Below, piece by piece: positions 3,845 to 62,996 of a stretch of DNA of 64,000 nt (the first letter of the stretch is position 1; every line of letters starts with the position of its first letter). This stretch comes from Deltaproteobacteria bacterium (GTDB lineage Bacteria > UBA10199 > JADGCS01): positions 55,886-119,885 of the forward strand of contig JADGCS010000001.1 of the NCBI GenBank assembly GCA_015228875.1, read 5' to 3'. The notes beneath the pieces were generated by a model. It was not told the origin of the DNA. It saw nothing but the letters and a program-made list of their open reading frames with translations, and made no database searches. A program made the translations under genes and the position numbers.

Positions 3845-5112
3845 TTATCACCTGACTGTATTGCGGCAACGGTCACAACACCAGCAATGTTGGCAGGGTA
3901 GTAGTTGTAGGTATCAGAGTGATCGTTCCCTGCAGCGGCCACGACCACAGCATCCAGACTGCGCGCAAACGCAATCGCTTCACGCTCAACAAGTGATCCT
4001 TCATACGAGCTAACACGTCCCAGACTTAAATTGATCACATCAGCCCCCATAGTCGCCGCGTAGGTGATTGCCGCAGCAATATCCGAGGAGCGGCCTTTAC
4101 CAATTGATGATAGAGCTCGCACCGGCATGATCTCGCTCCCATGCGCAACACCAACCACACCGATCCCATTATCGCCCACAGCCGCAATGTTCCCTGCAAC
4201 GTGTGTGCCGTGATAATGTTGATCCATCGGGTTGTTATCCGGGCCTTCATCGTTGTAGGTTGTAAAATTGTAACCGTTAACATCATCAATGTAACCGTTT
4301 GCATCATCGTCGATGCCGTTATCGGGGATCTCGCCGGGATTTTGCCAGATATTCTCGCTTAAATCGGGGTGGTTGTAATCAACACCGCTGTCCACAACGG
4401 CAACAACGACGCCAGCCCCGGTGATGCCCTGTGCCCAAGCCTCAGGTGCGTTTACCCTGTCGATTCCCCAGAGTTCCGGCAGGGAGGGGTCATTGGGGAG
4501 GGGGACTGCGGGATCCACCTCATCGAGTGTAATCACCTCGTCAATTGTTACCGACTCCACATCTGGGTCGTTTTTAAGTTCGTTGATGAGATCTGTCACT
4601 GCGGGGTCTGTTTTGTCTTTGCTGATTTTTGCATCAAGCTTCATGACGTAGAAATCAGAGAGACGGGGAGTCTTGTCTGTGGGAGACCCCTTATTTTTAA
4701 GGGTTGGACGCTGTTGCTTGACCTTATTAAACACATCTTGATGCAACAGGCCTTCGGTTTTCCCCGATGTTTTCATTTTTTTTACAAGTCCGGTAAACAC
4801 GGGCCTTGTCTCGCTGATCTTTTTATGCTGATTAAAAAAGGTATCCAGTTTTGAACCTCCTGATTTTTTGATATCACCTCTCTTAAACCGCATTTTGTCT
4901 GCTGATAATCTGTCCTTTAACAGGCCGCCCAACCCAGGGGCACCGGACTTCGCGGGCTTAAATTTGACGATCAGGCGCACAGGTTCTTTTTCTGCATCCG
5001 CCTGTTGATCCAAAAGTGGATCTAAGCCCTTAAACTGGCCCTGCGTGAGGCAGGGGACAAGAAACAGACAGCCAATAAAAACGATCAACGCGATGGATGT
5101 GTTTTTAAACAT
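3751..5112 (-). CDS. Secreted S8 subtilase, N-terminal fragment: signal peptide, propeptide, and the catalytic Asp/His/Asn part
   Basis: Signal peptide MFKNTSIALIVFIGCLFLV. Motifs VAVVDSGVD, HGTHVAGNIAA and AAGNDHSD. The frame ends in out-of-frame residues after ...SGDNPR. Confidence 0.8.
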   Translation of the reverse strand: MFKNTSIALIVFIGCLFLVPCLTQGQFKGLDPLLDQQADAEKEPVRLIVKFKPAKSGAPGLGGLLKDRLSADKMRFKRGDIKKSGGSKLDTFFNQHKKISETRPVFTGLVKKMKTSGKTEGLLHQDVFNKVKQQRPTLKNKGSPTDKTPRLSDFYVMKLDAKISKDKTDPAVTDLINELKNDPDVESVTIDEVITLDEVDPAVPLPNDPSLPELWGIDRVNAPEAWAQGITGAGVVVAVVDSGVDYNHPDLSENIWQNPGEIPDNGIDDDANGYIDDVNGYNFTTYNDEGPDNNPMDQHYHGTHVAGNIAAVGDNGIGVVGVAHGSEIMPVRALSSIGKGRSSDIAAAITYAATMGADVINLSLGRVSSYEGSLVEREAIAFARSLDAVVVAAAGNDHSDTYNYYPANIAGVVTVAAIQSGDNPRISQILGSTLMWQPPVLMSYQPSQVVPMR

Positions 5113-6841: not shown

Positions 6842-8305
<1,464 letters not shown>

Positions 8306-8309
8306 CCTG

Positions 8310-9276
8310 TTATTTTTTTACGGCATCGGCATTGAGCGCGTTGATCAACTCACCTTTTGTTAAAAAGGCTGCGATTTGATTTGCCGCATCGATGGCGACG
8401 TTATCCTGCGCCTCGTGCGTGGAGGCGCCGAGGTGCGGGGTAAAGATGACCTTGTCGCTTTTTAAAAGAGGGTGATGAGGGTCGACAGGTTCTTTTTCAA
8501 AGACATCAAGGGCTGCACCCGCCACAATGCCGTTTTCTATGGCCGCGCAGAGGTCTATTTCGTTGATGATCCCGCCGCGTGCACAGTTGATAATAAAGAC
8601 GCCTTTTTTCATTTTTTCGAAGGCCTGTTTGTTGACCATGCCGGCTGTTTTTTCATTTTTTGGCGTATGAATGGTGATGTAATCGGCGGTTTTGTAAAGG
8701 TCGTCGAGCTCTACTTTTTTTGCACCCAGTGCCGTGACAGCGGCCTCTGTTAAAAAGGGATCGTAGACAATGACATTCATTTTAAGACCTGCGGCCCTGT
8801 CGGCCACTATTTTACCTATGTTGCCGGCGCCGATGAGACCAAGAGTTTTATTGAAAATCTCCGACCCCATGAAGGCGTTTTTTTCCCACTTGCCGGCCCT
8901 GATTGAGGCGGTAGCCTGCGGGATCTGGCGGGAGCAGGCAAACATCATCGCGATGGCGTGTTCGGCGGTGGTGACTGTATTGCCAAACGGGGTATTCATC
9001 ACGATGATCCCTTGTTTGGAGGCCGCGGGGATATCGACGTTATCAACACCAATCCCTGCACGAGCAATGACCTTAAGTTTTTTTGCACAGGATAAGATGT
9101 CGGCCTTGAGTTTTGTTGCCGAGCGAATAATAATGGCATCAACATCGGCAATCACCTCCTTGAGTTTGTCGATATCTTTACCAAGACCGGGCTGGTTTAA
9201 GACCTCGATCCCCTTTGTTTCCTGAAGTATTTTGATTCCCTTGGGGGAGCACTTGTCCGAAATGAGTACTTTCATA
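8310..9276 (-). CDS. D-isomer-specific 2-hydroxyacid dehydrogenase (short SerA-like phosphoglycerate dehydrogenase, no ACT domain)
   Basis: MKVLISD start with upstream RBS. NAD-binding motif GLIGAGNIGKIVA. Catalytic region FINCARGGIINE...HLGAST. The tool ORF extends upstream through a spurious region. Confidence 0.8.
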
Positions 9277-9410
9277 ATGTTTGCAAAAATTCCAGACAGC
9301 CCCCTGATACGCACGGTTGCCGTGCAGGAGAGCACCCACCTTCTCTGTGGTGGCATGAGGAGGGGGGTGAGTCTGGAAGAACGCGTTAATGGTTGTTATA
9401 CCCTCGATGT

Positions 9411-9507
9411 ATAGGAATTTCAAAGTCGACAGAGCGCGGGTGCATTCCTCGCAAAATGGAGGAATTCAATCGCGTCAAAGTCAAGTTAGTAACTTGTGAT
9501 CATTTGA
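9411..9507 (+). repeat. Repeat family A copy
   Basis: ataggaatttcaaagtcgacagagcgcgggtgcattcctcgcaaaatggaggaattcaatcgcgtcaaagtcaagttagtaacttgtga. Confidence 0.85.
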
Positions 9508-9744: not shown

Positions 9745-10122
9745 ATGTTGACCGCAAATCATGAATACGACATCATCACCTGCCGGGGATTTCAATACGC
9801 ATGCGAGATCGGCATTTTTGAGAATGAGCAGGGCGTTAAACAAAAAATTCTTGTGGATCTTAAGGTCCCCATCAAGAAAGACGTGTCTTACGAACAGGAC
9901 AGGGTGCAGGATATCCAGTTCGCTTACGATCAGGCAAATCAGGTGATCAAGGGTGTTGTTGAGGGAAAAAGGTATAATCTGATCGAATCACTCGCAGAAA
10001 AAATTGCCTGTGAGCTTTTACAAAAATTTGCTATTGAGTTTGTCGAAGTGGAGGTCACAAAATTTCCCATCGATATGCCCAACGCAGACTCCGTTTCATT
10101 CACATGCATCAGGGGCAGGTAA
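9745..10122 (+). CDS. folB: Dihydroneopterin aldolase
   Basis: About 125 aa with the FolB-like pattern IxxCRGFQYACEIGIFENEQGVKQKILVDL...YNLIESLAEKIA. A GGAGGG RBS precedes the ATG at 9745. Confidence 0.75.
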   Translation: MLTANHEYDIITCRGFQYACEIGIFENEQGVKQKILVDLKVPIKKDVSYEQDRVQDIQFAYDQANQVIKGVVEGKRYNLIESLAEKIACELLQKFAIEFVEVEVTKFPIDMPNADSVSFTCIRGR

Positions 10123-10123
10123 T

Positions 10124-10777
10124 ATGAAAATCATATCCAATACCGCCATCAGTATCGATGGAAAAATAGGTTTTAAAATAGATCAGCTTGTTTTTTTGGG
10201 GACACGGCGGGACCGTATCAGGATGAGTGAGATTAGGGGAACGGCGGACGCCATTCTGGTTGGAGGGCAGGGTTTTAGAAACTGGCCAAAACCCCTGCTG
10301 GCCAGAGAAGAAGACGAAAAACACGATCTTAAAAAAAAACCAAAACTGAATGTCGTTTTATCCCACAGCCTGCATCTACCGGTTGACAACGAATATCTTG
10401 CCGAAAAGAGAAAAAGAACTCTGGTCCTGACTGACGCCACAGCAATCCCCCATGGATTTCCCTTTGAGGTCGTGCAGTGCAGGGGGCAGATTTCTGCGGA
10501 ATGGATCGCGGACGAGATTGCCAAGAGGGGTGTAGAGACGCTGCTGATCGAGGGCGGTTCAACCATCCTGCACATGTTTTTACAGTCCGAACTCATCGAT
10601 GAGATGTTTATCACGCTGTGTCCGCTGATTATTGGTGGCCATCAGGCCCCGTCGCTTGTGGGCGGCGAGGGATTTACCGTCAGCCATTTCAAGCGTTTCG
10701 AGATCGTTAAAAACGAAGTCATCGGTCACGAGATCTTTCTGCACTACAAGTTACTAAAAAACAAGTTACTAACTTGA
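10124..10777 (+). CDS. RibD C-terminal-domain / dihydrofolate-reductase-like family reductase
   Basis: ISIDGKIG, DAILVGGQGF and LLIEGGSTILHMFLQSELIDEMFITLCPLIIGG are hallmark motifs of the RibD_C/DHFR fold. The ATG lies 1 nt after the folB stop. The C-terminal approximately 12 aa are read from repeat A. Confidence 0.7.
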   Translation: MKIISNTAISIDGKIGFKIDQLVFLGTRRDRIRMSEIRGTADAILVGGQGFRNWPKPLLAREEDEKHDLKKKPKLNVVLSHSLHLPVDNEYLAEKRKRTLVLTDATAIPHGFPFEVVQCRGQISAEWIADEIAKRGVETLLIEGGSTILHMFLQSELIDEMFITLCPLIIGGHQAPSLVGGEGFTVSHFKRFEIVKNEVIGHEIFLHYKLLKNKLLT

Positions 10778-10875
10778 CTTTGATGCCCCGAAGGAAATGC
10801 CCTTGGGGCACGCGATTGAATTCCTTCATTTTGCGAGGAATGCACCCGCGCTCTGTCGACTTTGAAATTCTTGGA
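10762..10875 (-). repeat. Repeat family A copy (inverted), with a nested 24-nt GC motif
   Basis: Reverse complement of the 9411 copy, with inserted ccccgaaggaaatgcccttgggg. Confidence 0.85.
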
Positions 10876-10895
10876 TATAAATATAGAGGTATCAA

Positions 10896-14501: not shown

Positions 14502-14994
14502 ATGAATCAAAAAATCTCTTGTTGTCTTTTTTGGACGAAAAACCATGCTTTGAAATCACACCCAGTGTGTAGAGGGTATTGGCGTTAAAAAAGATACGGT
14601 AACAGATGTATTGCTGATCCTGCGTGACAAAACTGATTTCTACCCCCGCGTTTTTTTTCACGGTGATTTTTTTTTCTGATTTGACCGTTCCCATTTTGGT
14701 GTTCACAAGGATTGATTTTGTATTGTCAATAAAAAGCTGCTTGTCTTCTTGCGACAGTTCCGTGCTGTGGATTGAATAGATAATCTTGAATTGTGTGTCA
14801 CCGCTTTCGGACAGGACTGTGTTGACGGTGTATTCTGCCCTGACGGTGAAAGAAAACTGTGGTTCGGCTGGCAAAAGAATGGAGAACAAGTCATCGGGTG
14901 TCTGGTACTGTATCCAGTCAGGTTGATCATCAGCCTCTGCGCTGTTTGCGCATAAAGAAAACAACACGGCAATCAGCAGTATTTTTTTTATCAT
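14410..14994 (-). CDS. Secreted hypothetical protein (signal peptide)
   Basis: MIKKILLIAVLFSLCANSAEADD signal peptide. Its 3' end overlaps the convergent EEP gene by about 90 bp. Confidence 0.45.
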   Translation of the reverse strand: MIKKILLIAVLFSLCANSAEADDQPDWIQYQTPDDLFSILLPAEPQFSFTVRAEYTVNTVLSESGDTQFKIIYSIHSTELSQEDKQLFIDNTKSILVNTKMGTVKSEKKITVKKNAGVEISFVTQDQQYICYRIFFNANTLYTLGVISKHGFSSKKDNKRFFDSFNLSEHPQSQSPVEQDHDSIRDDHQKTNAK

Positions 14995-15063
14995 GGGGCA
15001 ATCTTATAATGTGCCCGTAATAAAAACAATTGATTTAAAGGCACGCACTCAATATCAGTTACA

Positions 15064-15153
15064 CCCTAACCCGCATAAAGCGGAAAAACCTACGCGGGCA
15101 GGCGACTCGAAAATTTTGTTGCCGAAACGCGTAGAAAAAACCTATCTAGGTTC
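15064..15153 (-). repeat. Repeat family B copy (inverted)
   Basis: ccctaacccgcataaagcggaaaaacctacgcggg...gaaacgcgtagaaaaaacctatctaggttc. Confidence 0.8.
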
Positions 15154-15154
15154 T

Positions 15155-15625
15155 ATGGCAAAAAAGACCGAAGAGGGCGGGATTAAAATTGTCTGCGAAA
15201 ATAGAAAGGCCAGATTCCTTTACCAACTCACAGATCGTTTTGAGGCTGGGATCGTTCTGACCGGCTCGGAGGTCAAGTCCATCAGAAAAGGCCAGGTGAA
15301 TCTCACAGATGCCTATGCCGACATCCACAACGATGAGGCCTTTATTCTGCAAATGCACATCTCTCCCTACGATAAAGGGGGCTATGCCAATCACGAACCC
15401 AAACGAAAGAGAAAACTTCTGCTGCATAAACGTGAGATTTTAAAGCTCATTGGAAAAACAGAGATCAAGGGAATGACCCTGATTCCACTCAAGGTCTACT
15501 TTAAAAATGGAAAGGCCAAGATTGAACTGGCTCTGGGATCAGGAAAAAAGGGCCCTGACAAAAGACAGACAATCAAAGAACGTGAAACAAAACGGGAACT
15601 CGATCGCGAGATGAAAAGGAGATAA
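15155..15625 (+). CDS. smpB: SsrA-binding protein
   Basis: ENRKARFLYQLTDRFEAGIVLTGSEVKSIR...LLLHKREI, and a basic C-terminal tail. The tool ORF starts upstream inside a family-B repeat; the true start is ATG 15155. Confidence 0.9.
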   Translation: MAKKTEEGGIKIVCENRKARFLYQLTDRFEAGIVLTGSEVKSIRKGQVNLTDAYADIHNDEAFILQMHISPYDKGGYANHEPKRKRKLLLHKREILKLIGKTEIKGMTLIPLKVYFKNGKAKIELALGSGKKGPDKRQTIKERETKRELDREMKRR

Positions 15626-17433: not shown

Positions 17434-18928
17434 CAGGGATGCTTTTAAAACCTTGGAAGGTTTTTTCTACGCGTTTCGGCATCAATTTTTGCATGGTGTC
17501 CGCCCGCGTAGTATTTTCCGCTTTATGCGGGTTATGACTCACCCTGCCTTCGATCTGCCAGTCATCGTTTAACGGAAAACAAATCAGGGTAAAGGGGTCA
17601 GGGCGCTCCATCAGCCTGTATTTTTTTCCGACAATTTCAAACTCATCACCGGCCTTTAATCCCAGCGGGAGGGAGGGCAGTGCCCTTTTGTAGTTTGTAA
17701 ACGTCGACGGATTAACATGATTAAGGTCGATGACCTCTCTGATGAGATAACCGTTTGCATCGATGGTTTCTATGATGATGGTTGGCTCCTTGATCTCTGC
17801 AATTTTACCTGTTTTATCCTTGATTGTAACGCAGTCTCCCTGCGTGAGTGATTGCACGAGTGTTTTGATTTCGTCCCTGATCCTGAACGTGTGAGGGTTG
17901 ACGTCGTTGAGGTCAACGGGTTCCGTGACCACGACCCCCTTGGCATCGACGGCCTCAATGAACATGACATAGTCGTTGATCGCGGCAACCCTTCCCCTTT
18001 TTTCCTTAAGACTGATGTAGTCCCCGACCTTGATTGCGGCAATGAGCGCTGGATGTTTGTCGCGTCGGGTAGTGGCGGTGCCGATCAATGCCGAGTTTGG
18101 GACTGTGACCACGACCCCATCACCAAACACGTCAAAGTCACGCAGTTCGACAGAAAAAGGGGTGACCTGTTTCACAACCCCTTTGTGTTCGCCAATAACA
18201 ATACTGTCGCCGATACCAAAGTGTTGGTACATATTGGAAAGAAAAAAAGTGGCGAGATTTTTTATCGGGTCCTGAAGTGCAAACCCCAGGCCCAGGCCCA
18301 GGAGTCCCATGCCTGCAACCAGTGCCGTGACATCTACCCCAATCGATTTAAGACCAAAGATCGCTGCCCCTCCAAGCAGGGCCGTCTGCGCAAGTTTGAG
18401 GCCAAGCCCCGTCATTTTTTTGCCGCGCTCGGTGATGTTGGGGTCGTCCTTTATGGCCTTTGCCCTGTTCGAAAGATGGCGATACAAAAGATAGGCGCCA
18501 AGCCCCAATGCCCCCACCTTGCCGATCCCGGGCAGTTGTCTGGTTATAAAATCGTTAATATTGAGAATGTTCCATGAGTGGAGGACAGCAAGCAACGCCC
18601 CCGTATCAAAGACAAGCTCCGCAGTTGTGAGCGCTGTATTAATAGCGGGTTTTGTTGTGTCCTTGATGCGGGATGACTGATGAATTTTTTGTTTTGCATA
18701 GCCCAGCGTACGGTGTAAGGCATACGCGCCCGTGGCAAGACCCGCAGTGGTCAAGAGTGGTGTCTGGACTGTCCTGAGCACACCCGCAACACTGTCAACC
18801 GTGAAAACAGCATGGGATAACCCCTGCAGGGAGGGTGTCGTCTTGACAGGTAACGCATGTTGTACCTGAGTGAGCGGGGAATGAAGAAAATGAGAAACGG
18901 GGCCGTGAAGCAGTTGTCCAAGGTGCAT
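17357..18928 (-). CDS. MscS-family mechanosensitive channel with duplicated C-terminal beta-domains
   Basis: Transmembrane segments, then GLGLGFALQDPIKNLATFFL...IGDSIVIGEHKGVVKQVTPFSVELRD, the MscS signature. An internal 40-aa duplication follows. The C-terminus as translated runs into a family-B repeat. Confidence 0.75.
   Translation of the reverse strand: MHLGQLLHGPVSHFLHSPLTQVQHALPVKTTPSLQGLSHAVFTVDSVAGVLRTVQTPLLTTAGLATGAYALHRTLGYAKQKIHQSSRIKDTTKPAINTALTTAELVFDTGALLAVLHSWNILNINDFITRQLPGIGKVGALGLGAYLLYRHLSNRAKAIKDDPNITERGKKMTGLGLKLAQTALLGGAAIFGLKSIGVDVTALVAGMGLLGLGLGFALQDPIKNLATFFLSNMYQHFGIGDSIVIGEHKGVVKQVTPFSVELRDFDVFGDGVVVTVPNSALIGTATTRRDKHPALIAAIKVGDYISLKEKRGRVAAINDYVMFIEAVDAKGVVVTEPVDLNDVNPHTFRIRDEIKTLVQSLTQGDCVTIKDKTGKIAEIKEPTIIIETIDANGYLIREVIDLNHVNPSTFTNYKRALPSLPLGLKAGDEFEIVGKKYRLMERPDPFTLICFPLNDDWQIEGRVSHNPHKAENTTRADTMQKLMPKRVEKTFQGFKSIPVKDLQGGLLIRSTPLHPSASGSRAG
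17448..17546 (+). repeat. Repeat family B copy
   Basis: aaaccttggaaggttttttctacgcgtttcggcatcaatttttgcatggtgtccgcccgcgtagtattttccgctttatgcgggttatg. Confidence 0.85.
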
Positions 18929-29433: not shown

Positions 29434-29554
29434 AGCTGGTTCTTTCTATGCCCCGAAGGAAATCCCCTTGGGGGAGGTGCGGTTTAACGTCAATATATGA
29501 TAGTCAGCCCGCGTGGTATTTTAGGACCGATGCGGGGTATGGAGGATAAGCAAA

Positions 29555-33438: not shown

Positions 33439-33609
33439 AAAAATTCATTATGCAATGAGCATGCCAAAATCAGTGGGGTCCGCATTTGTTCTATCTTGTT
33501 GAAAAAAGAGACTTATTTATTAACAGCTGTTTTTGAATGCGGTGACAAACAGGACGGTAGCGTCAGATTTTTTTACAGGTTGTAAAGAACATGTGAGGGA
33601 CTTGATGTA

Positions 33610-33693
33610 TAGGAATTTCAAAGTCGACTGAGCGCGGGTGCATTCCTCGCAAAATTAAGGAATTCAATCGCGTCAAAGTCAAGTTAGTAACTT
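33610..33693 (+). repeat. Repeat family A copy
   Basis: aggaatttcaaagtcgactgagcgcgggtgcattcctcgcaaaattaaggaattcaatcgcgtcaaagtcaagttagtaacttg. Confidence 0.85.
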
Positions 33694-33700
33694 GTTAATA

Positions 33701-35131
33701 CTACCCGACCGTTGAGCGCACCTTGAGATTGTATTTTTCGATCTTGGCCTGAAGCGTTGGTCTTGTGAGCCCCAGAAGTTTGGCGGCATTGGTCCTGTTG
33801 CCATCAGTCAATTTGAGGGCTTCAGCGATAATGATTTTGCCGAACTGGTCCATTAAAGAATCAAACTTGCCATCTTGGGTCGTCGCATCGAACATGTGAC
33901 GAACAAGCTGTTGCACACTGCATTCGGGGTCGCTCATAAATTCATTGGGTGTCTTTGTGTTTTTTTTGCACAGGATAACCTGCCGCAGGTCCTTGACCTC
34001 AACGGGGGCGCCTTGAGAGAAGATCAGAACCCTTTGAATGGTGTTTTGCAGTTCCCTGACATTGCCTGGCCAGTTGTATTCTAAGAGCATGGCAACGGCA
34101 TCTTCAGTCAGGCCTGGATTGGGTTTGCCGTTTTGTGCCGAGAAAAAACTCATGAAATAATCGGTGAGCAGAGGGATATCTCCCTGACGGTCGCGTAAAG
34201 GCGGGACATTAAGGGTGACAACTTTAAGTCTGTAATAGAGATCCTCCCTGAAACTTCCCTCCGCAAGAGCCGCTTCAAGATTGCGATTGGTCATGGCCAC
34301 AATTCTCACGTCGACAGGAATGGTCTCTCTGCCGCCGAGTCTTTCGATGCATTTTTCCTGCAGGAGTCTTAAAATCTTTGCCTGAATATTTGCCGGCATA
34401 TCGCCGATTTCATCGAGGAGTACGGTTCCCTTGTTTGCCTGTTCAATCTTCCCCAGTTTTCTGCTGACGGCGCCAGTAAAGGCGCCTTTTTCGTATCCAA
34501 AAAGCTCGCTTTCGAGCAGGGTGTCGGGGATAGCCACGCAGTTGATGACGACAAAAGGTTTGTTGGATCGTTCGCTGTGCTGATAAATGGCTCTGGCCAC
34601 GAGTTCCTTGCCTGTGCCAGTCTCGCCGCGCACAAGCACTGTGGCATCGTTGGGTGCAACATGCCCGATTTCTTTGTAGAGCTTTTGCATAACCTTGCTT
34701 TGTCCTACAATGACATCGGACTTTGTCCCATCGGCAATGATATTCATGTCTATTCTTTTTCTCATGAACTGGCCCGACTTAATGGCGTCTTTGATGAGTT
34801 CAAGGATCTCCGGGATATCAAATGGTTTAAAGATGTAATCAAATGCCCCCATCTTGGTCGCTTCGATGGCCATATCTGTGGTTCCGTACGCAGTCATGAT
34901 GATCAATGGGAGTTTGGGATCGATATCGTGAATGATCAAAAAAGCGTCATACCCACTCATGCCAGGCATTTTGATATCCATCAAGACAAGGTCGGGAGAG
35001 CGGGACTCAACCAGATTGATGCCCTCCTGCCCGGTCTGTGCAATGATGACGTTATAGCCCTCAGCGATCAGAATTTTTTTAAAACTCTTGAGAAGCTGCA
35101 GATCATCATCGACTATGAGAATGGTTTCCAT
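33701..35131 (-). CDS. Sigma-54-dependent transcriptional activator (NtrC family response regulator)
   Basis: Receiver domain, AAA+ domain with GETGTGKELVARAIY and GAFTGA, and a C-terminal Fis-type HTH. Confidence 0.93.
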   Translation of the reverse strand: METILIVDDDLQLLKSFKKILIAEGYNVIIAQTGQEGINLVESRSPDLVLMDIKMPGMSGYDAFLIIHDIDPKLPLIIMTAYGTTDMAIEATKMGAFDYIFKPFDIPEILELIKDAIKSGQFMRKRIDMNIIADGTKSDVIVGQSKVMQKLYKEIGHVAPNDATVLVRGETGTGKELVARAIYQHSERSNKPFVVINCVAIPDTLLESELFGYEKGAFTGAVSRKLGKIEQANKGTVLLDEIGDMPANIQAKILRLLQEKCIERLGGRETIPVDVRIVAMTNRNLEAALAEGSFREDLYYRLKVVTLNVPPLRDRQGDIPLLTDYFMSFFSAQNGKPNPGLTEDAVAMLLEYNWPGNVRELQNTIQRVLIFSQGAPVEVKDLRQVILCKKNTKTPNEFMSDPECSVQQLVRHMFDATTQDGKFDSLMDQFGKIIIAEALKLTDGNRTNAAKLLGLTRPTLQAKIEKYNLKVRSTVG

Positions 35132-40430: not shown

Positions 40431-41702
40431 TTATTCCCCCGTGATTGAAACACCCGCCACAATTGGGGTGAGCGTCTCACCGACCTGCTCTTTTGTTTCA
40501 ATATTGAAAACCTTGATGGCAGGGTTTGCGTCCCCTTCTGAGGTGCTGATCACCCGGTAACTTGCCCAGAGATAAGGGGGGTGAACATGGATGTCGCGGA
40601 TATCTGTTGCGTAGTCCTGAAAGGTTGTGATCGCAGATGAATCGCTTAAATCTTGCGGGAAAGAAACAATTTTTGATTCAAATGTGAAACTGCTGATGTC
40701 GTATCTGGCAAGGACAGCAAAAATTTTATCGCCCGATGGTTTGAGGTATTCGACGTAGCCACCAAGCCCCGAATCGTGGATAAATAATTCTGTGGTTTGG
40801 GCCTCGATATTTATGACCTCGATCCCGCCATACGAGGTGTTAAAGGAATAATCCGCAGTGTGTGAAACAAAGAGTCGGGTCATGTCGTCACTGGCCGCAA
40901 GGGCGGAGGGATTGCGCCCCTGCATTTTGATGGTGCCGGTGATGTGATGTTCGTTGACATCAATCATCCCGACGAGACCGTTTGAGTTCGCCGTAAATGT
41001 GCTCTGAAGATCCTGCAAGAGAACGTACAGTGTGTTGTTAACGATAAGCATCTTGTACGCACTGCCATTTTGGTCGCCATCGTCATTAAGGTATGCGGCA
41101 AAAGAATAGCGATGGGGTATTTCGCCCGTGTTGGTATTCATTTCGATGACATCGGCAGGGTCGCCGTTACTATCGATATTGTCGGGGTCACTCCCCGGAT
41201 TGTAAAGGGAGATAAAGGCCCTGTTGCCCTCGATGATACAATCACGCGGGTTGGTGCCGTTGCCTGTGGAGAATTGATTGAGGGTTTTAAAGGGGTGTTG
41301 TGGGTCGTACGGGTCGATGATTTGAAGGTTATCCGAACTGACCGAGTTGAACATGGCCCCGGCGTGAAGAACGTATAAAAGCCCTTCATGCAACCGCACG
41401 GTTGCCTCTGTCCCTAGCAGGGTGACCCCGGAGTTGGTAAGCACTGTAACTCCGTCTTCGATTTGGGCGGCATAAAGCTGACCGCTAGACTGGTAGTCCG
41501 TTGCAAAAACAAAAACAGTTTGCCGGTCTTCTGCGCTGTCCTCTGGGTCGAAATCAGTCTCATCCTCGATACCTATGGATGGATCAACAGCGACACCCTT
41601 TGCAGGCTCCACAGAGATACTGCCGCAAGAGAGCAAAAAGCAGACCGACAAACAAATGAATAAAGCAACACAAACAGTTTTTTTAGGGGAACGGATAGAC
41701 AT
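40431..41702 (-). CDS. Lipoprotein, probable beta-propeller
   Basis: FLLSCGS lipobox, then a repetitive beta-rich sequence. Confidence 0.5.
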   Translation of the reverse strand: MSIRSPKKTVCVALFICLSVCFLLSCGSISVEPAKGVAVDPSIGIEDETDFDPEDSAEDRQTVFVFATDYQSSGQLYAAQIEDGVTVLTNSGVTLLGTEATVRLHEGLLYVLHAGAMFNSVSSDNLQIIDPYDPQHPFKTLNQFSTGNGTNPRDCIIEGNRAFISLYNPGSDPDNIDSNGDPADVIEMNTNTGEIPHRYSFAAYLNDDGDQNGSAYKMLIVNNTLYVLLQDLQSTFTANSNGLVGMIDVNEHHITGTIKMQGRNPSALAASDDMTRLFVSHTADYSFNTSYGGIEVINIEAQTTELFIHDSGLGGYVEYLKPSGDKIFAVLARYDISSFTFESKIVSFPQDLSDSSAITTFQDYATDIRDIHVHPPYLWASYRVISTSEGDANPAIKVFNIETKEQVGETLTPIVAGVSITGE

Positions 41703-41924
41703 GGGGTTGTCCTCGCAAAAGTCTTTGTCCTACAATGTCTTGATGGTCTTTATTAAAGAAAAACTTAAAACCACAGAACGGTTGCAGCAACGACAAAGCT
41801 CAGGCAGGTCTTCTGACTTATGGGACTTGATATGATTTTATCAAGAGACGATTAAGGCAACCTTCCCATGTTTTGTCTGGCAAGCTAGCGCTTGGCGCAA
41901 CTACGCGACGAAATCTTCTGTTTT

Positions 41925-41967
41925 GCACGGGATGCACCCGCGCTCAATTGACTTTGAAATTCCCAGA
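41925..41967 (-). repeat. Repeat family A partial copy
   Basis: gcacgggatgcacccgcgctcaattgactttgaaattcc. Confidence 0.6.
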
Positions 41968-42096
41968 CACCAACACACAGTGGTTATACGCCCTACAACC
42001 CCATTTACAGCGGCGGGACCGCGCCGGATTTGCACCGGCTTCCCGTTTAATCCCCGAGGGGAACCTGATGTGTGGTATTTACACGGCGTTGTGATT

Positions 42097-42933: not shown

Positions 42934-43050
42934 AGGTTGTCCATGAGGACCGAGGTAACAGGGATTGCAATTCTCATGATTTGTCAGTAATTCATTGCTT
43001 GCAAAACCATGAAACCTTCTTATGAACTTAACGTAAATCACATGGGTTGG

Positions 43051-43135
43051 CAAGTTACTAACTTGACTTTGACGCGGTTGAGTTCCCTCGTTATGCGAGG
43101 AATGCACCCGCGCTCTGTCGACTTTGAGATTCCTG
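43051..43135 (-). repeat. Repeat family A copy (inverted)
   Basis: caagttactaacttgactttgacgcggttgagttccctcgttatgcgaggaatgcacccgcgctctgtcgactttgagattcc. Confidence 0.85.
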
Positions 43136-43154
43136 GACATCAAGCAGGCTGATC

Positions 43155-43694
43155 ATGTGCTCATTATCCATGAAAAAAAATTTTATTTTTATTGTTGTCA
43201 TTTTTTTGTTGGGATATTTTTTGTACTCTGCCCTGTTTTCTCAGTCGGGGCTGGCCATTGGTAAGGCGGCCCCCTTATTTACTGTAGAGACACCAGGGCA
43301 TGAGCCATTTCAACTCAAAGATCATATTGGCAAAAAGGTGATCCTTTTGAATCTCTGGGCCACATGGTGTCCCGCCTGCCGCGAGGAGATCCCGGTACTT
43401 AATCAAATCCAGTCAGAACTTGATGGTGCAAAATTCATGATGGTTTCTATCATGCTTGATGAGACAAAGGACGCACAACAAAAACACGAGGCTCTCAACA
43501 GATTTAAGGAAAAAATACCCATTCACTTTCCTGTGTATTTTGATAACGGCTTTGCTGTGGCAGATGCTTACGGCACTTATAAACTGCCCGAATCCTACAT
43601 CATCGATTTAAACGGTGTCGTCAGTTACAAACATGTGGGACCCATAATGGGCTGGGATAAAAACGACATTATAGAGAGAATCAAGCAACTATAA
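43155..43694 (+). CDS. TlpA-like thiol:disulfide oxidoreductase (thioredoxin fold), membrane anchored
   Basis: WATWCPACREEIP motif with an N-terminal hydrophobic segment. Confidence 0.8.
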   Translation: MCSLSMKKNFIFIVVIFLLGYFLYSALFSQSGLAIGKAAPLFTVETPGHEPFQLKDHIGKKVILLNLWATWCPACREEIPVLNQIQSELDGAKFMMVSIMLDETKDAQQKHEALNRFKEKIPIHFPVYFDNGFAVADAYGTYKLPESYIIDLNGVVSYKHVGPIMGWDKNDIIERIKQL

Positions 43695-43699
43695 TATAC

Positions 43700-43816
43700 A
43701 GGAATTTCAAAGTCGACAGAGCGCGGGTGCATTCCTCGCAAAATAAAATGGAGAAATTCAATCGCGTCCCCCAAGGGGATTTCCTTCGGGGCATCACAGT
43801 CAAGTTGGTAACTTGA
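43700..43816 (+). repeat. Repeat family A copy, with a nested 24-nt GC motif
   Basis: aggaatttcaaagtcgacagagcgcgggtgcattcctcgc...cccccaaggggatttccttcggggc...gtcaagttggtaacttg. Confidence 0.85.
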
Positions 43817-44567
43817 GGTCTATTTTTTCCCCGGGTCTTAAAAGGCAGACCTCACTTGTCACACCTTGTTTTGTCATTTCTTGTGAGAGTGTTTCGCTTA
43901 TTTTTTCGAAGGTTCGGCCGTGATAATTAAAGGATCCAAACGCATTGGGGATCATTTTTTTGGCCCCCAAATCTTTAAAGGCCTGCACTGCCTCTGCAGG
44001 GGTCATGTATCTTTTGCCCGCAATAAAATCGGGATTTAAGTGATCGATGGGAAGGATAGCCACATCGATGTTGTAGTTTTTACCAATATCGAAAAAACAG
44101 GCCCCATCGTATTTTGTATCGCTACAGTAAAAGACCGTGGCTGTGGGGAGTTTGATGATGTAGTGAAGACTGTTCTGAGGGATCAATGGGCAGTTTCTAA
44201 ATCCCCTATGAAGGGGTTTTAATCCGATAATTTGACACGACCCGATCCCCATTTCTGCTCCATTTTTGAGTTCGTTGATGGGGAATCTGTGGAACCTGCT
44301 GATGATCCTGCCAAGTCCCATGGGGAGAATAATCTGGGCGGTCTGTTTAAAATACCTGAGGGCATCGAGATTCATCCGATGATGATGGGCGTTGCTTAAG
44401 AGGACACAGTTAACCTTGTGAAGGTCCTCGGTGTTTATTGACGGGTCATCCAGTCTCCTGAGGTAGAACATTTTTTTGTCAAAGTTGGGATCGATGACAA
44501 GACTGATATCTGACGTTTTGAGCCACACGGTTGTGTGTCCGAGAAATGTGATGCTGCATTCATTCAT
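43800..44567 (-). CDS. MBL-fold metallo-hydrolase
   Basis: ITFLGHTTVWL...LLSNAHHHRMNLDAL pattern. Confidence 0.65.
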   Translation of the reverse strand: MNECSITFLGHTTVWLKTSDISLVIDPNFDKKMFYLRRLDDPSINTEDLHKVNCVLLSNAHHHRMNLDALRYFKQTAQIILPMGLGRIISRFHRFPINELKNGAEMGIGSCQIIGLKPLHRGFRNCPLIPQNSLHYIIKLPTATVFYCSDTKYDGACFFDIGKNYNIDVAILPIDHLNPDFIAGKRYMTPAEAVQAFKDLGAKKMIPNAFGSFNYHGRTFEKISETLSQEMTKQGVTSEVCLLRPGEKIDLKLPT

Positions 44568-53793: not shown

Positions 53794-53991
53794 GGCTACT
53801 CCTTTATGCCCACGTTTGCGCCGAGTGCTTTAAACACTGCAGACAGCAGAGAACGCCAGCATTAAGTTTATAGGTTGGATCGGATAGGAGCCCACTATCA
53901 CACATGCGGATAAAACGCAAAAAACGATTTTTTCCCCCGCGAGCCAATGCACAACGCCTTATTGTAAACCAAAAATGACGCTGTTGCAATA

Positions 53992-54083
53992 GAACCTTGG
54001 AAGGTTTTTTCTACGCGTTTCGACATCAATTTTTGCATGGTGTCCGCCCGCGTAGTTTTTTCGGATTTATGCGGGTTATGGGA
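53992..54083 (+). repeat. Repeat family B copy
   Basis: gaaccttggaaggttttttctacgcgtttcgacatcaatttttgcatggtgtccgcccgcgtagttttttcggatttatgcgggttatgg. Confidence 0.85.
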
Positions 54084-61489: not shown

Positions 61490-61509
61490 TTTTTTTTAGA
61501 ACCTAAGTA

Positions 61510-61703
61510 GAACCTTGGAAGGTTTTTTCTACGCGTATCGGCATCAATTTTTGCATGGTGTCCGCCCGCGTAGTATTTTCCGCTTTATGCGAGTTATGTT
61601 TTTTCTACGCGCAGGGGTTTGGCGCATTTCGTCAAACATGAAATCATTCATGTTTGAACGCAATGCACCCCGCGCAGTATTTTCAGCTTTATGCGGGTTA
61701 TGG
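61510..61703 (+). repeat. Two tandem repeat family B copies; the second has a variant core with a perfect caaacatgaa/ttcatgtttg hairpin
   Basis: gaaccttggaaggttttttctacgcgtatcggc...gctttatgcgagttatg, then ttttttctacgcgcagggg...cgcgcagtattttcagctttatgcgggttatgg. Confidence 0.85.
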
Positions 61704-62996
61704 ATTTTTAAGCGTGCCCAGACCTGCCACGTATCCCGATGACCATGCCCACTGCAGATTGTACCCGCCAAGGGTTCCCGTCACATCAAGGACTTCGCCC
61801 GCAAAAAACAGCCCTCTGACAATTGTTGACTCCATTGTTTGGGGATCAATGTGTGTTGTGGCGACCCCGCCGCGCGTGACCTCGGCCTGAGCAAATCCGG
61901 CTGTTGCAACAGGGACAAAAGAAAACTCCTTCACAAGCGTTGAGAGTTGTGCTGCGGTATGGTGAGAGACGGCGCCTGTGGTTAATTTGCCGACCCCTGC
62001 AATAGCGCAGAGTGTCTTTGCCAGATTTGCAGGCATGATTTTTGAAAGCACCGTGCACGCCTGTTTTTTGTTGTCCGTTTTTTTTCTGCCGTTAAGCCAA
62101 TTTTTAAAATCCTCACAGGACGGGGCAAAATCAACGGATAGAGACTCGTGCGGGTTCCAGAAAAGTGAGGCGTTAAAGACGGCGGGGCCGCTCAGTCCCG
62201 TGTGTGTAAAAAGAATACCGCCCGCAAAGCTTTTGCCCGCCGTAGTCACAACGGCATCAAGGGAGACGCCCGCAAGTTTTGAAAAATGGTTTTTAAGTGC
62301 GGCGGGAAAAATCACTCCCGCGAGCGCCGGATGCCGTTTGGTGACCTTGTGTCCAAACTGCCTTGCCAACCGATAACCCAAATCGGAACTCCCCAGGTGG
62401 GGACAGGACAAGCCCCCCGTGGCAATGACAAGATTCTTTGAGGAGAAGGTGTTGTTGTCGGTTTTTACGGTAAATATGGGAATTTCAAAGTCGACAGAGC
62501 GCGGGTGCATTTCTCGCATGACGGAGGAATTCAACCGCGTCAAAGTCAAGTTGGTAACTTGTTTCCGACCAGGGTCGTGCTGAACAGACAGGACATTGGT
62601 GCTGGTGAGTAACGTCACACGTTGTTTATCCAGTTTTGTGACAAGCATGTTAAGAATGTCGCGTGAGGTTTTTTTACAGAACAACTGCCCCTTGTCCTTT
62701 GTAAAAAACTCTATATGGGCCGATTGCACCCAATTAATAAAATCGGTGTTTTTAAAACGGTTGAGCGCGTGAGTGCAGAAATCAGGATCTTCGGAAACGT
62801 AGTCTGCACTTGATACTTTAAGGTTTGTAAAATTGCAGCGTCCACCGCCTGAGGCGAGTATTTTTTTTCCTGCAGAGGTGTTTTTTTCGAGAATGAGCGC
62901 CTTGTGGCCCCGGTTTCCCGCTGTGACAGCACAAACAAGCCCTGCGGCCCCCGCCCCGATGATGATGACATCAAATAAAGTGGCAGATTGATCCAT
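61698..62996 (-). CDS. HI0933-like FAD-dependent oxidoreductase carrying an in-frame repeat-A insertion
   Basis: FDVIIIGAGAAGLVCA dinucleotide fold, NLVIATGG and C-terminal GEVLDVTGTLGGYNLQWAWSSG. Family-A repeat copy 62479-62562 is translated without a stop. Confidence 0.7.
   Translation of the reverse strand: MDQSATLFDVIIIGAGAAGLVCAVTAGNRGHKALILEKNTSAGKKILASGGGRCNFTNLKVSSADYVSEDPDFCTHALNRFKNTDFINWVQSAHIEFFTKDKGQLFCKKTSRDILNMLVTKLDKQRVTLLTSTNVLSVQHDPGRKQVTNLTLTRLNSSVMREMHPRSVDFEIPIFTVKTDNNTFSSKNLVIATGGLSCPHLGSSDLGYRLARQFGHKVTKRHPALAGVIFPAALKNHFSKLAGVSLDAVVTTAGKSFAGGILFTHTGLSGPAVFNASLFWNPHESLSVDFAPSCEDFKNWLNGRKKTDNKKQACTVLSKIMPANLAKTLCAIAGVGKLTTGAVSHHTAAQLSTLVKEFSFVPVATAGFAQAEVTRGGVATTHIDPQTMESTIVRGLFFAGEVLDVTGTLGGYNLQWAWSSGYVAGLGTLKNP
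62479..62562 (+). repeat. Repeat family A copy located inside a CDS (in-frame)
   Basis: gggaatttcaaagtcgacagagcgcgggtgcatttctcgcatgacggaggaattcaaccgcgtcaaagtcaagttggtaacttg. Confidence 0.85.

Follow-up and report, generated by a model that had tools for sequence, protein, structure and literature searches.

The minus strand of the window (the whole 64-kb stretch of DNA that was analyzed) carries, at positions 61698 to 62996, a gene for an aminoacetone-oxidase/HI0933-like FAD-binding enzyme of 432 amino acids (P0001), which is identical to MBF0103796.1 and is annotated by NCBI as an intact CDS. The family assignment was based on TIGR00275 (387 bits versus a cutoff of 183.8) and on PF03486 and PF22780; the PF03486 match (E = 8.8e-85) is divided into two stretches by an insert. 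Here, the open reading frame (ORF) runs without a stop codon through one copy of an interspersed repeat, repeat A, and is translated as ...KQVTNLTLTRLNSSVMREMHPRSVDFEIPIFT... / ...HDPGRKQVTNLTLTRLNSSVMREMHPRSVDFEIPIFTVKTDNN..., the peptide being exactly the one quoted in the original prediction.

Compared with its homologues, the gene has an extra 90 nt (62478 to 62567, minus strand), i.e., 30 codons specifying residues ~144 to 173 (RKQVTNLTLTRLNSSVMREMHPRSVDFEIP), with a placement that is uncertain by ~2 codons; QVTNLTLTR and SVDFEIPIFTVK are peptides within the insert. The excess amounts to 30 residues relative to 13 of the 14 aligned homologues and to 29 residues relative to the remaining one, and the segment is missing from all 14 as well as from the PDB structures 2gqf, 3v76, and 9x7q. 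The conserved blocks that flank the insert align with those of the homologues, collinearly and in the same frame. The in-frame gain that had been predicted from an 84-nt copy thus stands, while its size, given as about 28 residues, is 30 residues (90 nt) by comparison with homologues; likewise, the alignment supports the clean insertion (of 90 rather than 84 nt), while the target-site duplication looked for along with it is not clear. The nearest homologue is only 48% identical, and there is no empty-site orthologue.

An AlphaFold2 (AF2) model of the enzyme has a pLDDT of 85.7 and matches 2gqf and 3v76 in Foldseek with TM scores of 0.88 to 0.91. In this model the insert lies between strands 135 to 141 and 174 to 179, and pLDDT is below 50 at residues 146 to 170. 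The insert is thus predicted to form a low-confidence loop at a beta-hairpin turn, compatible with the host fold, which agrees with the loop placement considered in the original prediction.

Repeat A is ~90 to 95 nt long and is present in exactly eight copies in the window, as found by repeat finding, alignment, and an nhmmer profile (E values of 7e-31 to 1e-14); the 84-nt copy reported earlier within the HI0933-like gene is one of these. With lengths of 87 to 127 nt, the eight copies occupy ~1.3% of the window, at a density of about one per 8 kb. For the element's 32-nt head (62479 to 62510), seven window matches were obtained at three or fewer mismatches, versus 0 expected in shuffled sequences. 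Five copies lie between genes or overlap a gene end, one lies in a CDS, one in a riboswitch, and one in a 5' region. The reference copy (9403 to 9497, plus strand) is intergenic and lies 46 nt before the start of a 2-hydroxyacid dehydrogenase gene (8310 to 9356, minus strand), and a diverged copy (74%; 8208 to 8302, plus strand) has its right end 7 nt past the stop of the same gene. Another copy (33601 to 33695, plus strand) ends 5 nt past the stop of a sigma-54 activator gene (33701 to 35131, minus strand). Two copies contain a nested 27-nt hairpin: one (10762 to 10881, minus strand) overlaps the 3' end of an RibD_C gene (10004 to 10777, plus strand), and the other (43690 to 43816, plus strand), which also has a 5-nt indel, overlaps the stop of an AhpC/TSA gene (43155 to 43694, plus strand). 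This AhpC/TSA gene (start, 43155) and xth (true start, 42933) are divergent, and the intergenic DNA separating them contains a copy at 43050 to 43144 (minus strand); a diverged copy with a changed right end (41888 to 41974, minus strand) lies in a cobalamin riboswitch. Many copies sit just past gene ends. The copy in the flavoprotein gene (plus strand) has its core at 62479 to 62562, with nhmmer extending it to 62471 and another boundary call placing the end at 62468; this left boundary is fuzzy by ~2 codons (62468 to 62478), as similarity to the other copies fades. It shares 87% identity with the 9403 reference copy and 92% with the 43051 copy. Repeat A is most probably a non-autonomous, interspersed selfish DNA element of ~90 nt whose copies have proliferated in this genome.

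The left arm of the element, ~30 nt, is unpaired; an imperfect hairpin occupies the center, and a 7-bp hairpin forms the extreme right end. In the flavoprotein copy, the central hairpin, as mapped from the 9403 copy, has 16-nt arms and an 8-nt loop (62500 to 62539, plus strand), and the terminal hairpin is CAAGTTG G TAACTTG (62547 to 62561, plus strand); the latter is perfect in the reference copy (CAAGTTA G TAACTTG). Diverged copies keep the hairpins through compensatory changes. The peptide of every in-gene copy begins at the right-end hairpin (QVTNL...), and CAAGTTAGTAACTTG is the end sequence of the element. Three of the six reading frames of the consensus are free of stops; the frame used in the flavoprotein is open in seven of the eight window copies, and the two other open frames give the peptides RNFKVDRARVHSSQNGGIQSRQSQVSNL and GISKSTERGCIPRKMEEFNRVKVKLVTC. 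The core M-H-P-x-S-x-D-F (motif MHPRSVDFEIP) is invariant across all window copies. In a peptide-level selection test against random substitutions, P values of 0.09 (8208 copy) and 0.035 (flavoprotein copy) were obtained, a weak result that is not relied on here.

The earlier label of MITE is not earned. A search for terminal inverted repeats of repeat A found none, the two ends do not pair, and the flanks of the eight copies, which offer no empty site for comparison, contain no consistent direct repeat indicative of a target-site duplication. Some copies have CTTG at each end, and four of the eight are preceded on the left by TTGAT, a motif that is inconsistent in the other four. No transposase domain, including those of Y1 transposase/RAYT, was detected among the ~50 window ORFs scanned. 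Repeat A has no match in Rfam, introns and ribozymes included, even at E = 10, and only chance matches (E = 0.8) in a BLAST comparison with plasmids; the element within the flavoprotein gene contains no promoter-like or terminator-like sites.

Repeat A is not limited to one protein. A HMMER scan of proteins with a profile of the repeat peptide revealed 12 further proteins that contain it in the same frame, and the ten that were traced all come from this metagenome-assembled genome (MAG; locus tags HQM16_*, proteins MBF0103796 to MBF0107355); the identity of frame in all 13 proteins is partly a consequence of searching with that frame. When the three frame peptides were concatenated and used in a word-indexed search of proteins, a method poor for short queries, no candidates were obtained. 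Several of the 12 are hypothetical proteins or have the element at the annotated N terminus, where start-codon miscalls could be responsible. A second conserved enzyme, the SGNH hydrolase P0133, contains a clean insertion of 30 to 31 residues with its catalytic blocks retained, and its copy is more diverged than the flavoprotein copy and still open in frame. In the AF2 model of P0133 the insert is placed between helix 117 to 128 and strand 161 to 168, with pLDDT below 50 at residues 138 to 157, that is, in a predicted loop compatible with the host fold. P0129 contains the nested hairpin variant (27 nt, 9 codons), likewise translated in frame.

A structured RNA contains the repeat as well. The cobalamin riboswitch aptamer (RF00174) at 41786 to 42083 (minus strand) matches its covariance model over the full length (positions 1 to 189) with 94 bits, the gathering score being 31.5. 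Its terminal loop, in which the consensus has 4 nt, holds a 101-nt insertion that is closed by a stem, and the repeat A copy at 41888 to 41974 accounts for most of it.

Taken together, these observations make us fairly confident that a selfish repeat of ~90 nt was inserted in frame into an otherwise intact flavoprotein gene and that the same process was repeated genome-wide. We propose that one copy entered the gene at the beta-hairpin turn of the FAD-binding domain, in an orientation and phase in which repeat A is open. The net gain is exactly 30 codons, so that the downstream frame is kept. The enzyme would thereby have acquired a flexible surface loop, which selection may tolerate as neutral or mildly harmful, and the process has, on this view, recurred in one riboswitch loop and in no fewer than 12 further annotated proteins. 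The insert-bearing proteins are presumably made and active, although an open reading frame does not in itself establish function, and the insertions are presumably neutral. Because repeat A has neither terminal inverted repeats nor obvious duplications, our best guess is that it is moved in trans by a transposase recognizing hairpins, in the style of IS200/IS605 or REP-RAYT.

If the insertion had instead killed the flavoprotein, the gene would be a young pseudogene and its open frame a chance read-through. The properties of the element give this reading some room, since three open frames and a net length that is a multiple of three would leave roughly one in two random insertions open by chance; moreover, P0001 has substitutions at eight family-invariant positions, three of them nonconservative (E99T, D226A, and K391T). 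However, the 1.3-kb gene is free of stops and frameshifts even though its copy of the element already differs by ~10% from the consensus, the GxGxxG and ATGG motifs are retained, and so are 98 of 106 invariant family columns (92%), as many as in a bona fide distant homologue (91% for the most divergent one in a leave-one-out comparison). Because these 98 residues are kept, the gene does not look like a pseudogene at the sequence level, and the alignment, in which the host enzyme is full length, sides with the earlier view of a tolerated insertion rather than a disrupted gene. The older and more diverged copy in the SGNH hydrolase, in frame and with catalytic motifs intact, and the use of the same frame in thirteen genes in total point in the same direction, and we regard loss of function as unlikely. 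Far less probable still is a segment that was never mobile, be it a native, lineage-specific loop of the flavoprotein that seeded the other copies or a misassembly at the repeat. The window does come from a MAG, and repeats are classic sites of misassembly, but the same gene lies on both sides of the repeat, collinear and in frame with its homologues. A native loop is difficult to reconcile with insert DNA that is 87 to 92% identical to intergenic copies in a host protein that is 48% identical to its nearest homologue, and both versions are opposed by the intergenic location of most copies and by the 12 unrelated proteins on other contigs that carry the repeat.

The in-gene copies could also be adaptive, the 30-residue peptide having been co-opted to give the host proteins a shared new property, such as a tag for binding, targeting, or degradation. 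A single frame in all 13 proteins (in part a product of the search design), the core that is invariant in all window copies, and slightly fewer amino acid changes than expected in the flavoprotein copy (the weak P value of 0.035 given above) would fit such a role. The core is, however, equally conserved in the intergenic and riboswitch copies, which have no useful translation, and the constraint therefore appears to act on DNA or RNA and not on the peptide. As the peptide is modeled as disordered, the host proteins are unrelated, and the statistics are weak, co-option seems very improbable. It is even harder to credit that the element is excised from RNA or bypassed by the ribosome to yield a mature protein lacking the loop. 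Stable hairpins formed by the element in mRNA would be in keeping with this, and bypassed mobile inserts are known elsewhere, as in phage T4 gene 60 and the yeast mitochondrial "byps"; the hallmarks of bypassing are matched take-off and landing codons and a stop right after take-off. Repeat A has no in-frame stop codon in the flavoprotein gene, and being open in frame, it needs no bypass. The absence of any Rfam match, to introns and ribozymes among others, speaks against excision, and copies with an indel are seen outside genes only.

The preferred reading, in-frame insertion of a selfish repeat, has precedents. Rickettsia RPE-1 to RPE-10 (Ogata et al. 2000 and 2002) are ~100- to 150-nt repeats that occur both in intergenic DNA and in conserved genes, in which their open frame adds about 30 to 50 residues, as well as in tmRNA and RNase P RNA (summarized in PMC2229807, PMC1779305, and PMC10969869). 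By description, repeat A resembles RPEs in its presence in intergenic DNA and conserved genes with a conserved open frame, in its apparent tolerance in unrelated enzymes at fold-compatible sites (flavoprotein and SGNH hydrolase, by AF2 models), and in its lineage-specific proliferation; the copy in the cobalamin riboswitch parallels the RPE copies described for tmRNA and RNase P RNA. There are also differences. Repeat A is smaller (about 90 to 95 nt versus 105 to 150 nt); the termini of RPEs pair through ~12-bp terminal inverted repeats, whereas repeat A has two internal hairpins only and unpaired ends; one of eight window copies lies in a gene, compared with nearly half of the copies in three RPE families; and the host lineage is unrelated to Rickettsia. 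The host is an uncultured MAG labeled Deltaproteobacteria, whose PurA has its best GTDB match at ~52%, is at most 53% identical to any species representative, and has matches across many phyla. In a pattern scan, the invariant core AAAGTCNANNGAGNGCGGGTGCAT was absent from 185,579 species genomes, from metagenome contigs, and from viral contigs, and the right half CGCGTCANAGTCAAGTTRGTAACTTG had no match in metagenome contigs. The lack of a copy in the 185,579 species genomes argues against a family shared with RPEs.

The original prediction of an RPE-like process in a different lineage is reinforced by the 12 further proteins, the second enzyme, and the riboswitch copy. Its statement that such insertions are rare outside Rickettsia was too strong, because fusions have been reported for ERIC, Correia, pneumococcal repeats, BRE, and QMITEs (PMC2229807, PMC3184786, PMC5896051, PMC10969869). 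Stop-free repeats fused to genes include ERIC/IRU, the 107-bp Correia element, BOX/RUP/SPRITE, Bordetella BRE, and Coxiella QMITE1/2, and classical MITEs are bounded by terminal inverted repeats and by target-site duplications, often TA (PMC2229807, PMC3184786, PMC5896051). Repeat A is like bacterial MITEs, ERIC, Correia, and QMITE elements in being small and multicopy, in coding for no transposase, and in having stop-free frames fused to genes, and like MITE-type repeats it supplies last residues and a stop codon, here to the RibD_C and MBL-fold genes; it differs in that terminal inverted repeats, typical of classical MITEs, are absent and no target duplication is clearly seen. With REP/BIME and IS200/IS605-derived elements it shares imperfect hairpins, the lack of terminal inverted repeats, and the lack of an evident duplication, and the TTGAT to the left of half of the copies is reminiscent of IS200/IS605-type insertion beside a fixed 4- to 5-nt target. 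REPs are 20 to 40 nt long and essentially extragenic. Repeat A is far longer and is present inside genes, and its window has no Y1 transposase/RAYT.

In-frame repeat fusion itself is thus already known in several systems, and repeat A is a new family in an unrelated, deep-branching lineage. A more ambitious and rather doubtful extension is that repeat A is a true RPE counterpart outside the Rickettsiales, selected for survival in genes and structured RNAs and spread under the guidance of its hairpins, with neither inverted repeats nor duplications involved; the features cited for it are the 30-codon net insertion, the 9-codon subelement, the three stop-free frames, and the self-contained hairpins. 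If this were true, repeat A would provide a steady supply of new surface loops for the proteome of the lineage. The usual teaching is that in-frame colonization of conserved genes by selfish repeats is an oddity of Rickettsia linked to its intracellular life, and repeat A represents a second, independent system, in which the hosts are one riboswitch and no fewer than 13 proteins, including two conserved enzymes. It bears on whether such repeats are tuned for translatability, on how proteins and RNAs absorb random loops of 30 residues or 100 nt, and on which enzyme mobilizes repeats without inverted termini.

The repeats also affect gene ends. As had been predicted, the C terminus of the RibD_C protein derives from repeat A, and the contribution is small, comprising the last 4 to 10 residues (..KLLT) and the TGA stop; the copy at 43690 to 43816 similarly ends the MBL-fold gene at 43800 to 44567 (minus strand), to which it contributes ..KLPT and the TGA stop. 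The N-terminal extension proposed for xth, on the other hand, is an artifact of mechanical ORF listing: the enzyme begins at MKIISWNVNG, and its ATG (42933) is separated by 116 nt from the element upstream. When this MAG is annotated automatically, the repeats give rise to false N-terminal extensions and altered C termini.

The first 32 nt of the segment reported within the flavoprotein gene (62479-62510) recur seven times in the window with no more than three mismatches, against an expectation of zero from dinucleotide-preserving shuffles. According to repeat finding, multiple alignment, and an nhmmer profile for which five copies were used, the window contains exactly eight copies of this element, repeat A, and no others. 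On the plus strand they lie at 8208-8302 (diverged, 74%), 9403-9497 (which serves as the reference), 33601-33695, 43690-43816 (with a nested 27-nt hairpin and a 5-nt indel), and 62468/62471-62562 (the reported copy); those on the minus strand are at 10762-10881 (also with a nested 27-nt hairpin), 41888-41974 (diverged), and 43050-43144. Identity between the reported copy and the others is 87-92%, and the minus-strand ORF that contains it (61698-62996) runs through it without a stop, the translated segment reading ...HDPGRKQVTNLTLTRLNSSVMREMHPRSVDFEIPIFTVKTDNN.... The eight-copy family and the stop-free read-through thus confirm the original prediction of a repeat copy inside a flavoprotein coding sequence.

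The host protein, an HI0933-like flavoprotein of the aminoacetone-oxidase family (432 aa), is 100% identical to MBF0103796.1, annotated by NCBI as intact on a 125,110-nt contig of a “Deltaproteobacteria bacterium” MAG. It scores 387 bits against TIGR00275 (cut-off, 183.8) and matches PF22780 as well as PF03486 (E = 8.8e-85), the latter match being broken into two stretches. Its closest homologues are only 48% identical and measure 393-404 aa. In an alignment with 14 homologues, an extra block located between ..V.HDxx and xFxV.. amounts to 30 residues relative to 13 of them and to 29 relative to the remaining one, and the rest of the protein is collinear; the same segment is absent from the solved structures 2gqf, 3v76, and 9x7q. 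Because of this excess and this absence, the gain is put at 90 nt (about 62478-62567), or 30 aa, so that the insertion stands while the predicted size of about 28 residues does not. The high-similarity core of repeat A makes up 84 of the 90 nt. F175 is invariant across the family, and I174-F175 may stem either from a degenerate left end of repeat A or from the host. In an AlphaFold2 model (mean pLDDT, 85.7; TM 0.88-0.91 to 2gqf and 3v76), the insert is an unstructured excursion (pLDDT <50 at 146-170) between strands 135-141 and 174-179, at a beta-hairpin tip of the FAD-binding domain. The model points to a tolerated loop, and the fold suggests that the tip is solvent exposed and far from the flavin. 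Neither promoter-like nor terminator-like sites were found within the repeat-A copy in this gene.

Read in the orientation GGAATTTC...AACTTG, repeat A falls into four segments: an unpaired left arm of about 30 nt, an imperfect central hairpin (CGCGGGTGCATTCCTC/GAGGAATTCAATCGCG), a short linker, and a perfect 7-bp hairpin (CAAGTTA-G-TAACTTG) that forms the far right end. Since the two ends of the element do not pair, it has no terminal inverted repeats; no direct repeat consistently flanks the eight window copies, four of which have a TTGAT pentamer before their left end. In lacking inverted termini and a clear duplication, repeat A differs from a classical MITE, and that label, proposed earlier, is not demonstrated. 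Both hairpins are kept in the diverged copies, with two compensatory pair changes, and all eight copies share an unchanged 14-nt core, GAGnGCGGGTGCAT. The consensus is stop-free in three of the six frames, and seven copies are open in the frame that the flavoprotein uses (QVTNLTLTRLNSSVLRGMHPRSVDFEIPIHQ), the exception being the copy with the 5-nt indel. The nested hairpin (nine codons; GC-rich, CCCCAAGGGGATTTCCTTCGGGGCA) occupies an identical internal position in its two repeat-A copies (10783-10809 and 43768-43794) and also stands alone, as a mini-element, at 29447-29475, after the TauE gene. No Rfam family matches repeat A, and no transposase domain was detected among the approximately 50 window ORFs scanned.

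DNA scans for the invariant core of repeat A in 185,579 species genomes, JGI metagenome contigs, and IMG/VR, and for its right half in the metagenome contigs, gave no match. An HMMER search of 1.84 billion representative proteins with a peptide profile made from seven window copies gave 12 genuine matches (E = 5e-16 to 7e-8); one further match was a spurious repeat protein. All 10 matches that were looked up come from seven other contigs of the same MAG (locus tags HQM16_*). The flavoprotein itself is missing from the representative matches, presumably because another protein represents its 50% cluster, and the 12 proteins are therefore a lower bound. In every matched protein the element peptide begins at QV[TA][NH]L (the terminal hairpin). 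Eight carry the element internally, e.g., a 616-aa membrane protein, a SAM methyltransferase, an SGNH/GDSL hydrolase, and this MAG's P0129, in which the nested variant is translated as nine extra residues (MPRRKSPWG). Four carry it at the annotated N-terminus, where start codons may have been mis-called. P0126 and P0128, both on other contigs of this MAG, show an N-terminal element with a hydrophobic, signal-peptide-like stretch immediately after it; judging from these sequences, the invariant internal ATG (MHPRS...) could be the true start, giving a positively charged n-region. A 334-aa hypothetical protein of the MAG (P0125) contains two copies translated in different frames (...RSRPPRGIPSGHQSQVSNL... 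at ~86-107 and QVTNLTSTRLGSSVMQGMHPRSVDFEIPGYK at 227-257), and its ORF may be largely repeat built.

The SGNH hydrolase (P0133) has a single clean block of 30-31 extra residues (VANLTVTRPDSSVLHGIHPRSVDVEIPRQG) relative to eight homologues (370-408 aa) and retains the GDS, GxND-like, and DxxH blocks. AF2 models this block with low confidence, as a loop joining helix 117-128 to strand 161-168. The copy has diverged further than that of the flavoprotein and is still open, as would be expected if the host gene were under selection with the insert present. In both conserved enzymes the insertion is clean and in frame, the host motifs are intact, and the modeled position is a loop.

A full-length cobalamin riboswitch (RF00174, 94 bits; 41786-42083, minus strand) carries a 101-nt insertion (about 41878-41978) in a terminal loop that has 4 nt in the consensus. 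The insertion is mostly the repeat-A copy at 41888-41974 and has a closing stem of its own (GUGUCUGG...CCAGACA) that extends the helix of the riboswitch. The downstream ORF (40431-41702, minus strand) has no Pfam or NCBIfam match. In a full-text literature search, we found no report of a repeat within a riboswitch aptamer.

Four of the eight window copies abut the 3' end of a gene, which could reflect target preference or survivorship. The unrelated RibD_C (10004-10777, plus strand) and MBL-fold hydrolase (43800-44567, minus strand) genes terminate in element-derived residues, ..KLLT* (region 10747-10777) and ..KLPT* (region 43800-43816), in the same frame and at the same TGA in the right end (terminal hairpin) of repeat A. 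Two further copies, sharing their orientation relative to the upstream gene, have the hairpin end 7 nt (8302-8312) and 5 nt (33695-33703) past stop codons. At 10747-10771, the terminal 10 nt of repeat A (AGTAACTTGT) are present in duplicate. The N-terminal extension of xth that had been ascribed to repeat A is an artefact: the real start is MKIISWNVNG (ATG 42933), 116 nt from the repeat, and the Exo_endo_phos domain runs from residue 74 of the mechanical ORF.

The best-supported account is that repeat A would be a selfish, non-autonomous repeat that proliferated in this MAG's genome and that, because half of its frames are stop-free and whole codons are added, is often tolerated in loops of proteins and structured RNAs. 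The flavoprotein and SGNH hydrolase are then probably made and working, and their inserts would be neutral. As to how the element moves, a hairpin-recognizing enzyme acting in trans would fit, because inverted termini and duplications are absent; we regard this only as a lead.

That the host gene is a pseudogene is unlikely: of the 106 columns that do not vary across the 14 homologues, the flavoprotein retains 98 (in a leave-one-out comparison, 91% are retained by the true homologue that diverges most), and by its sequence the gene does not look like one. Co-option of the repeat-A peptide is still harder to credit. The invariant core shows the same conservation in untranslated copies, and it is therefore the nucleic acid, not the peptide, that is constrained. 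An assembly artefact or a native loop would be a very improbable source of the segment, and repeat A recurs in 13 genes and one riboswitch; RNA-level removal or bypass of the insert is equally far-fetched, the reading frame being open through it.

Rickettsia palindromic elements (RPEs) are 100- to 150-bp repeats, abundant in intergenic and coding DNA, that form in-frame fusions in conserved genes, where enzymes tolerate them, and that also occur in tmRNA and RNase P RNA (PMC2229807, PMC1779305, PMC10969869). Repeat A resembles RPEs in behavior but differs in its unpaired termini, shorter unit, and unrelated host lineage, and it is not a member of the RPE family in the strict sense. Other small repeats with documented in-frame fusions include ERIC, the 107-bp Correia element, pneumococcal BOX/RUP/SPRITE, Coxiella QMITEs, and the BRE of Bordetella (about nine genes); some of them contribute a protein's C-terminal residues together with the stop (PMC2229807, PMC3184786, PMC5896051). 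As a phenomenon this is therefore already known, and to call it rare outside Rickettsia was an overstatement. With corrections of size, xth, the MITE label, and rarity, an RPE-like in-frame insertion in a different lineage is supported. New here are the repeat family, its anatomy, and the host lineage; repeat A represents a clean, multi-gene RPE-like system outside Rickettsia, plus a riboswitch insertion, and involves no new principle.

The housekeeping protein PurA (6842-8131, minus strand) has a best match of only about 52-53% identity among 185,579 GTDB species genomes, its top matches are scattered across many phyla, and numerous window ORFs lack a Pfam domain. The organism appears to represent a deep-branching lineage without close relatives that have been sequenced, hence the lack of empty-site orthologues. 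A second repeat family, B, is unrelated to A (~40-100 nt; core GCCCGCGTAGTATTTTCCGCTTTATGCGGGTTATG) and has copies at 5-46, 15064-15161, 17446-17536, 29500-29541, 53984-54081, 61508-61598, and 61661-61702. Two of these fill the space that separates the MscS-cNMP gene from the flavoprotein stop codon, one overlapping that stop, and another falls in the mechanical SmpB ORF (14993-15625), within the 66 residues of “N-terminal extension” ahead of the SmpB domain, which begins at residue 67. A subtilase (Peptidase_S8; 1769-5112, minus strand) is divided between two overlapping ORFs, with profile positions 1-184 in ORF 3751-5112 and 206-288 in ORF 1769-3808, which indicates a frameshift, a sequencing error, or a pseudogene.
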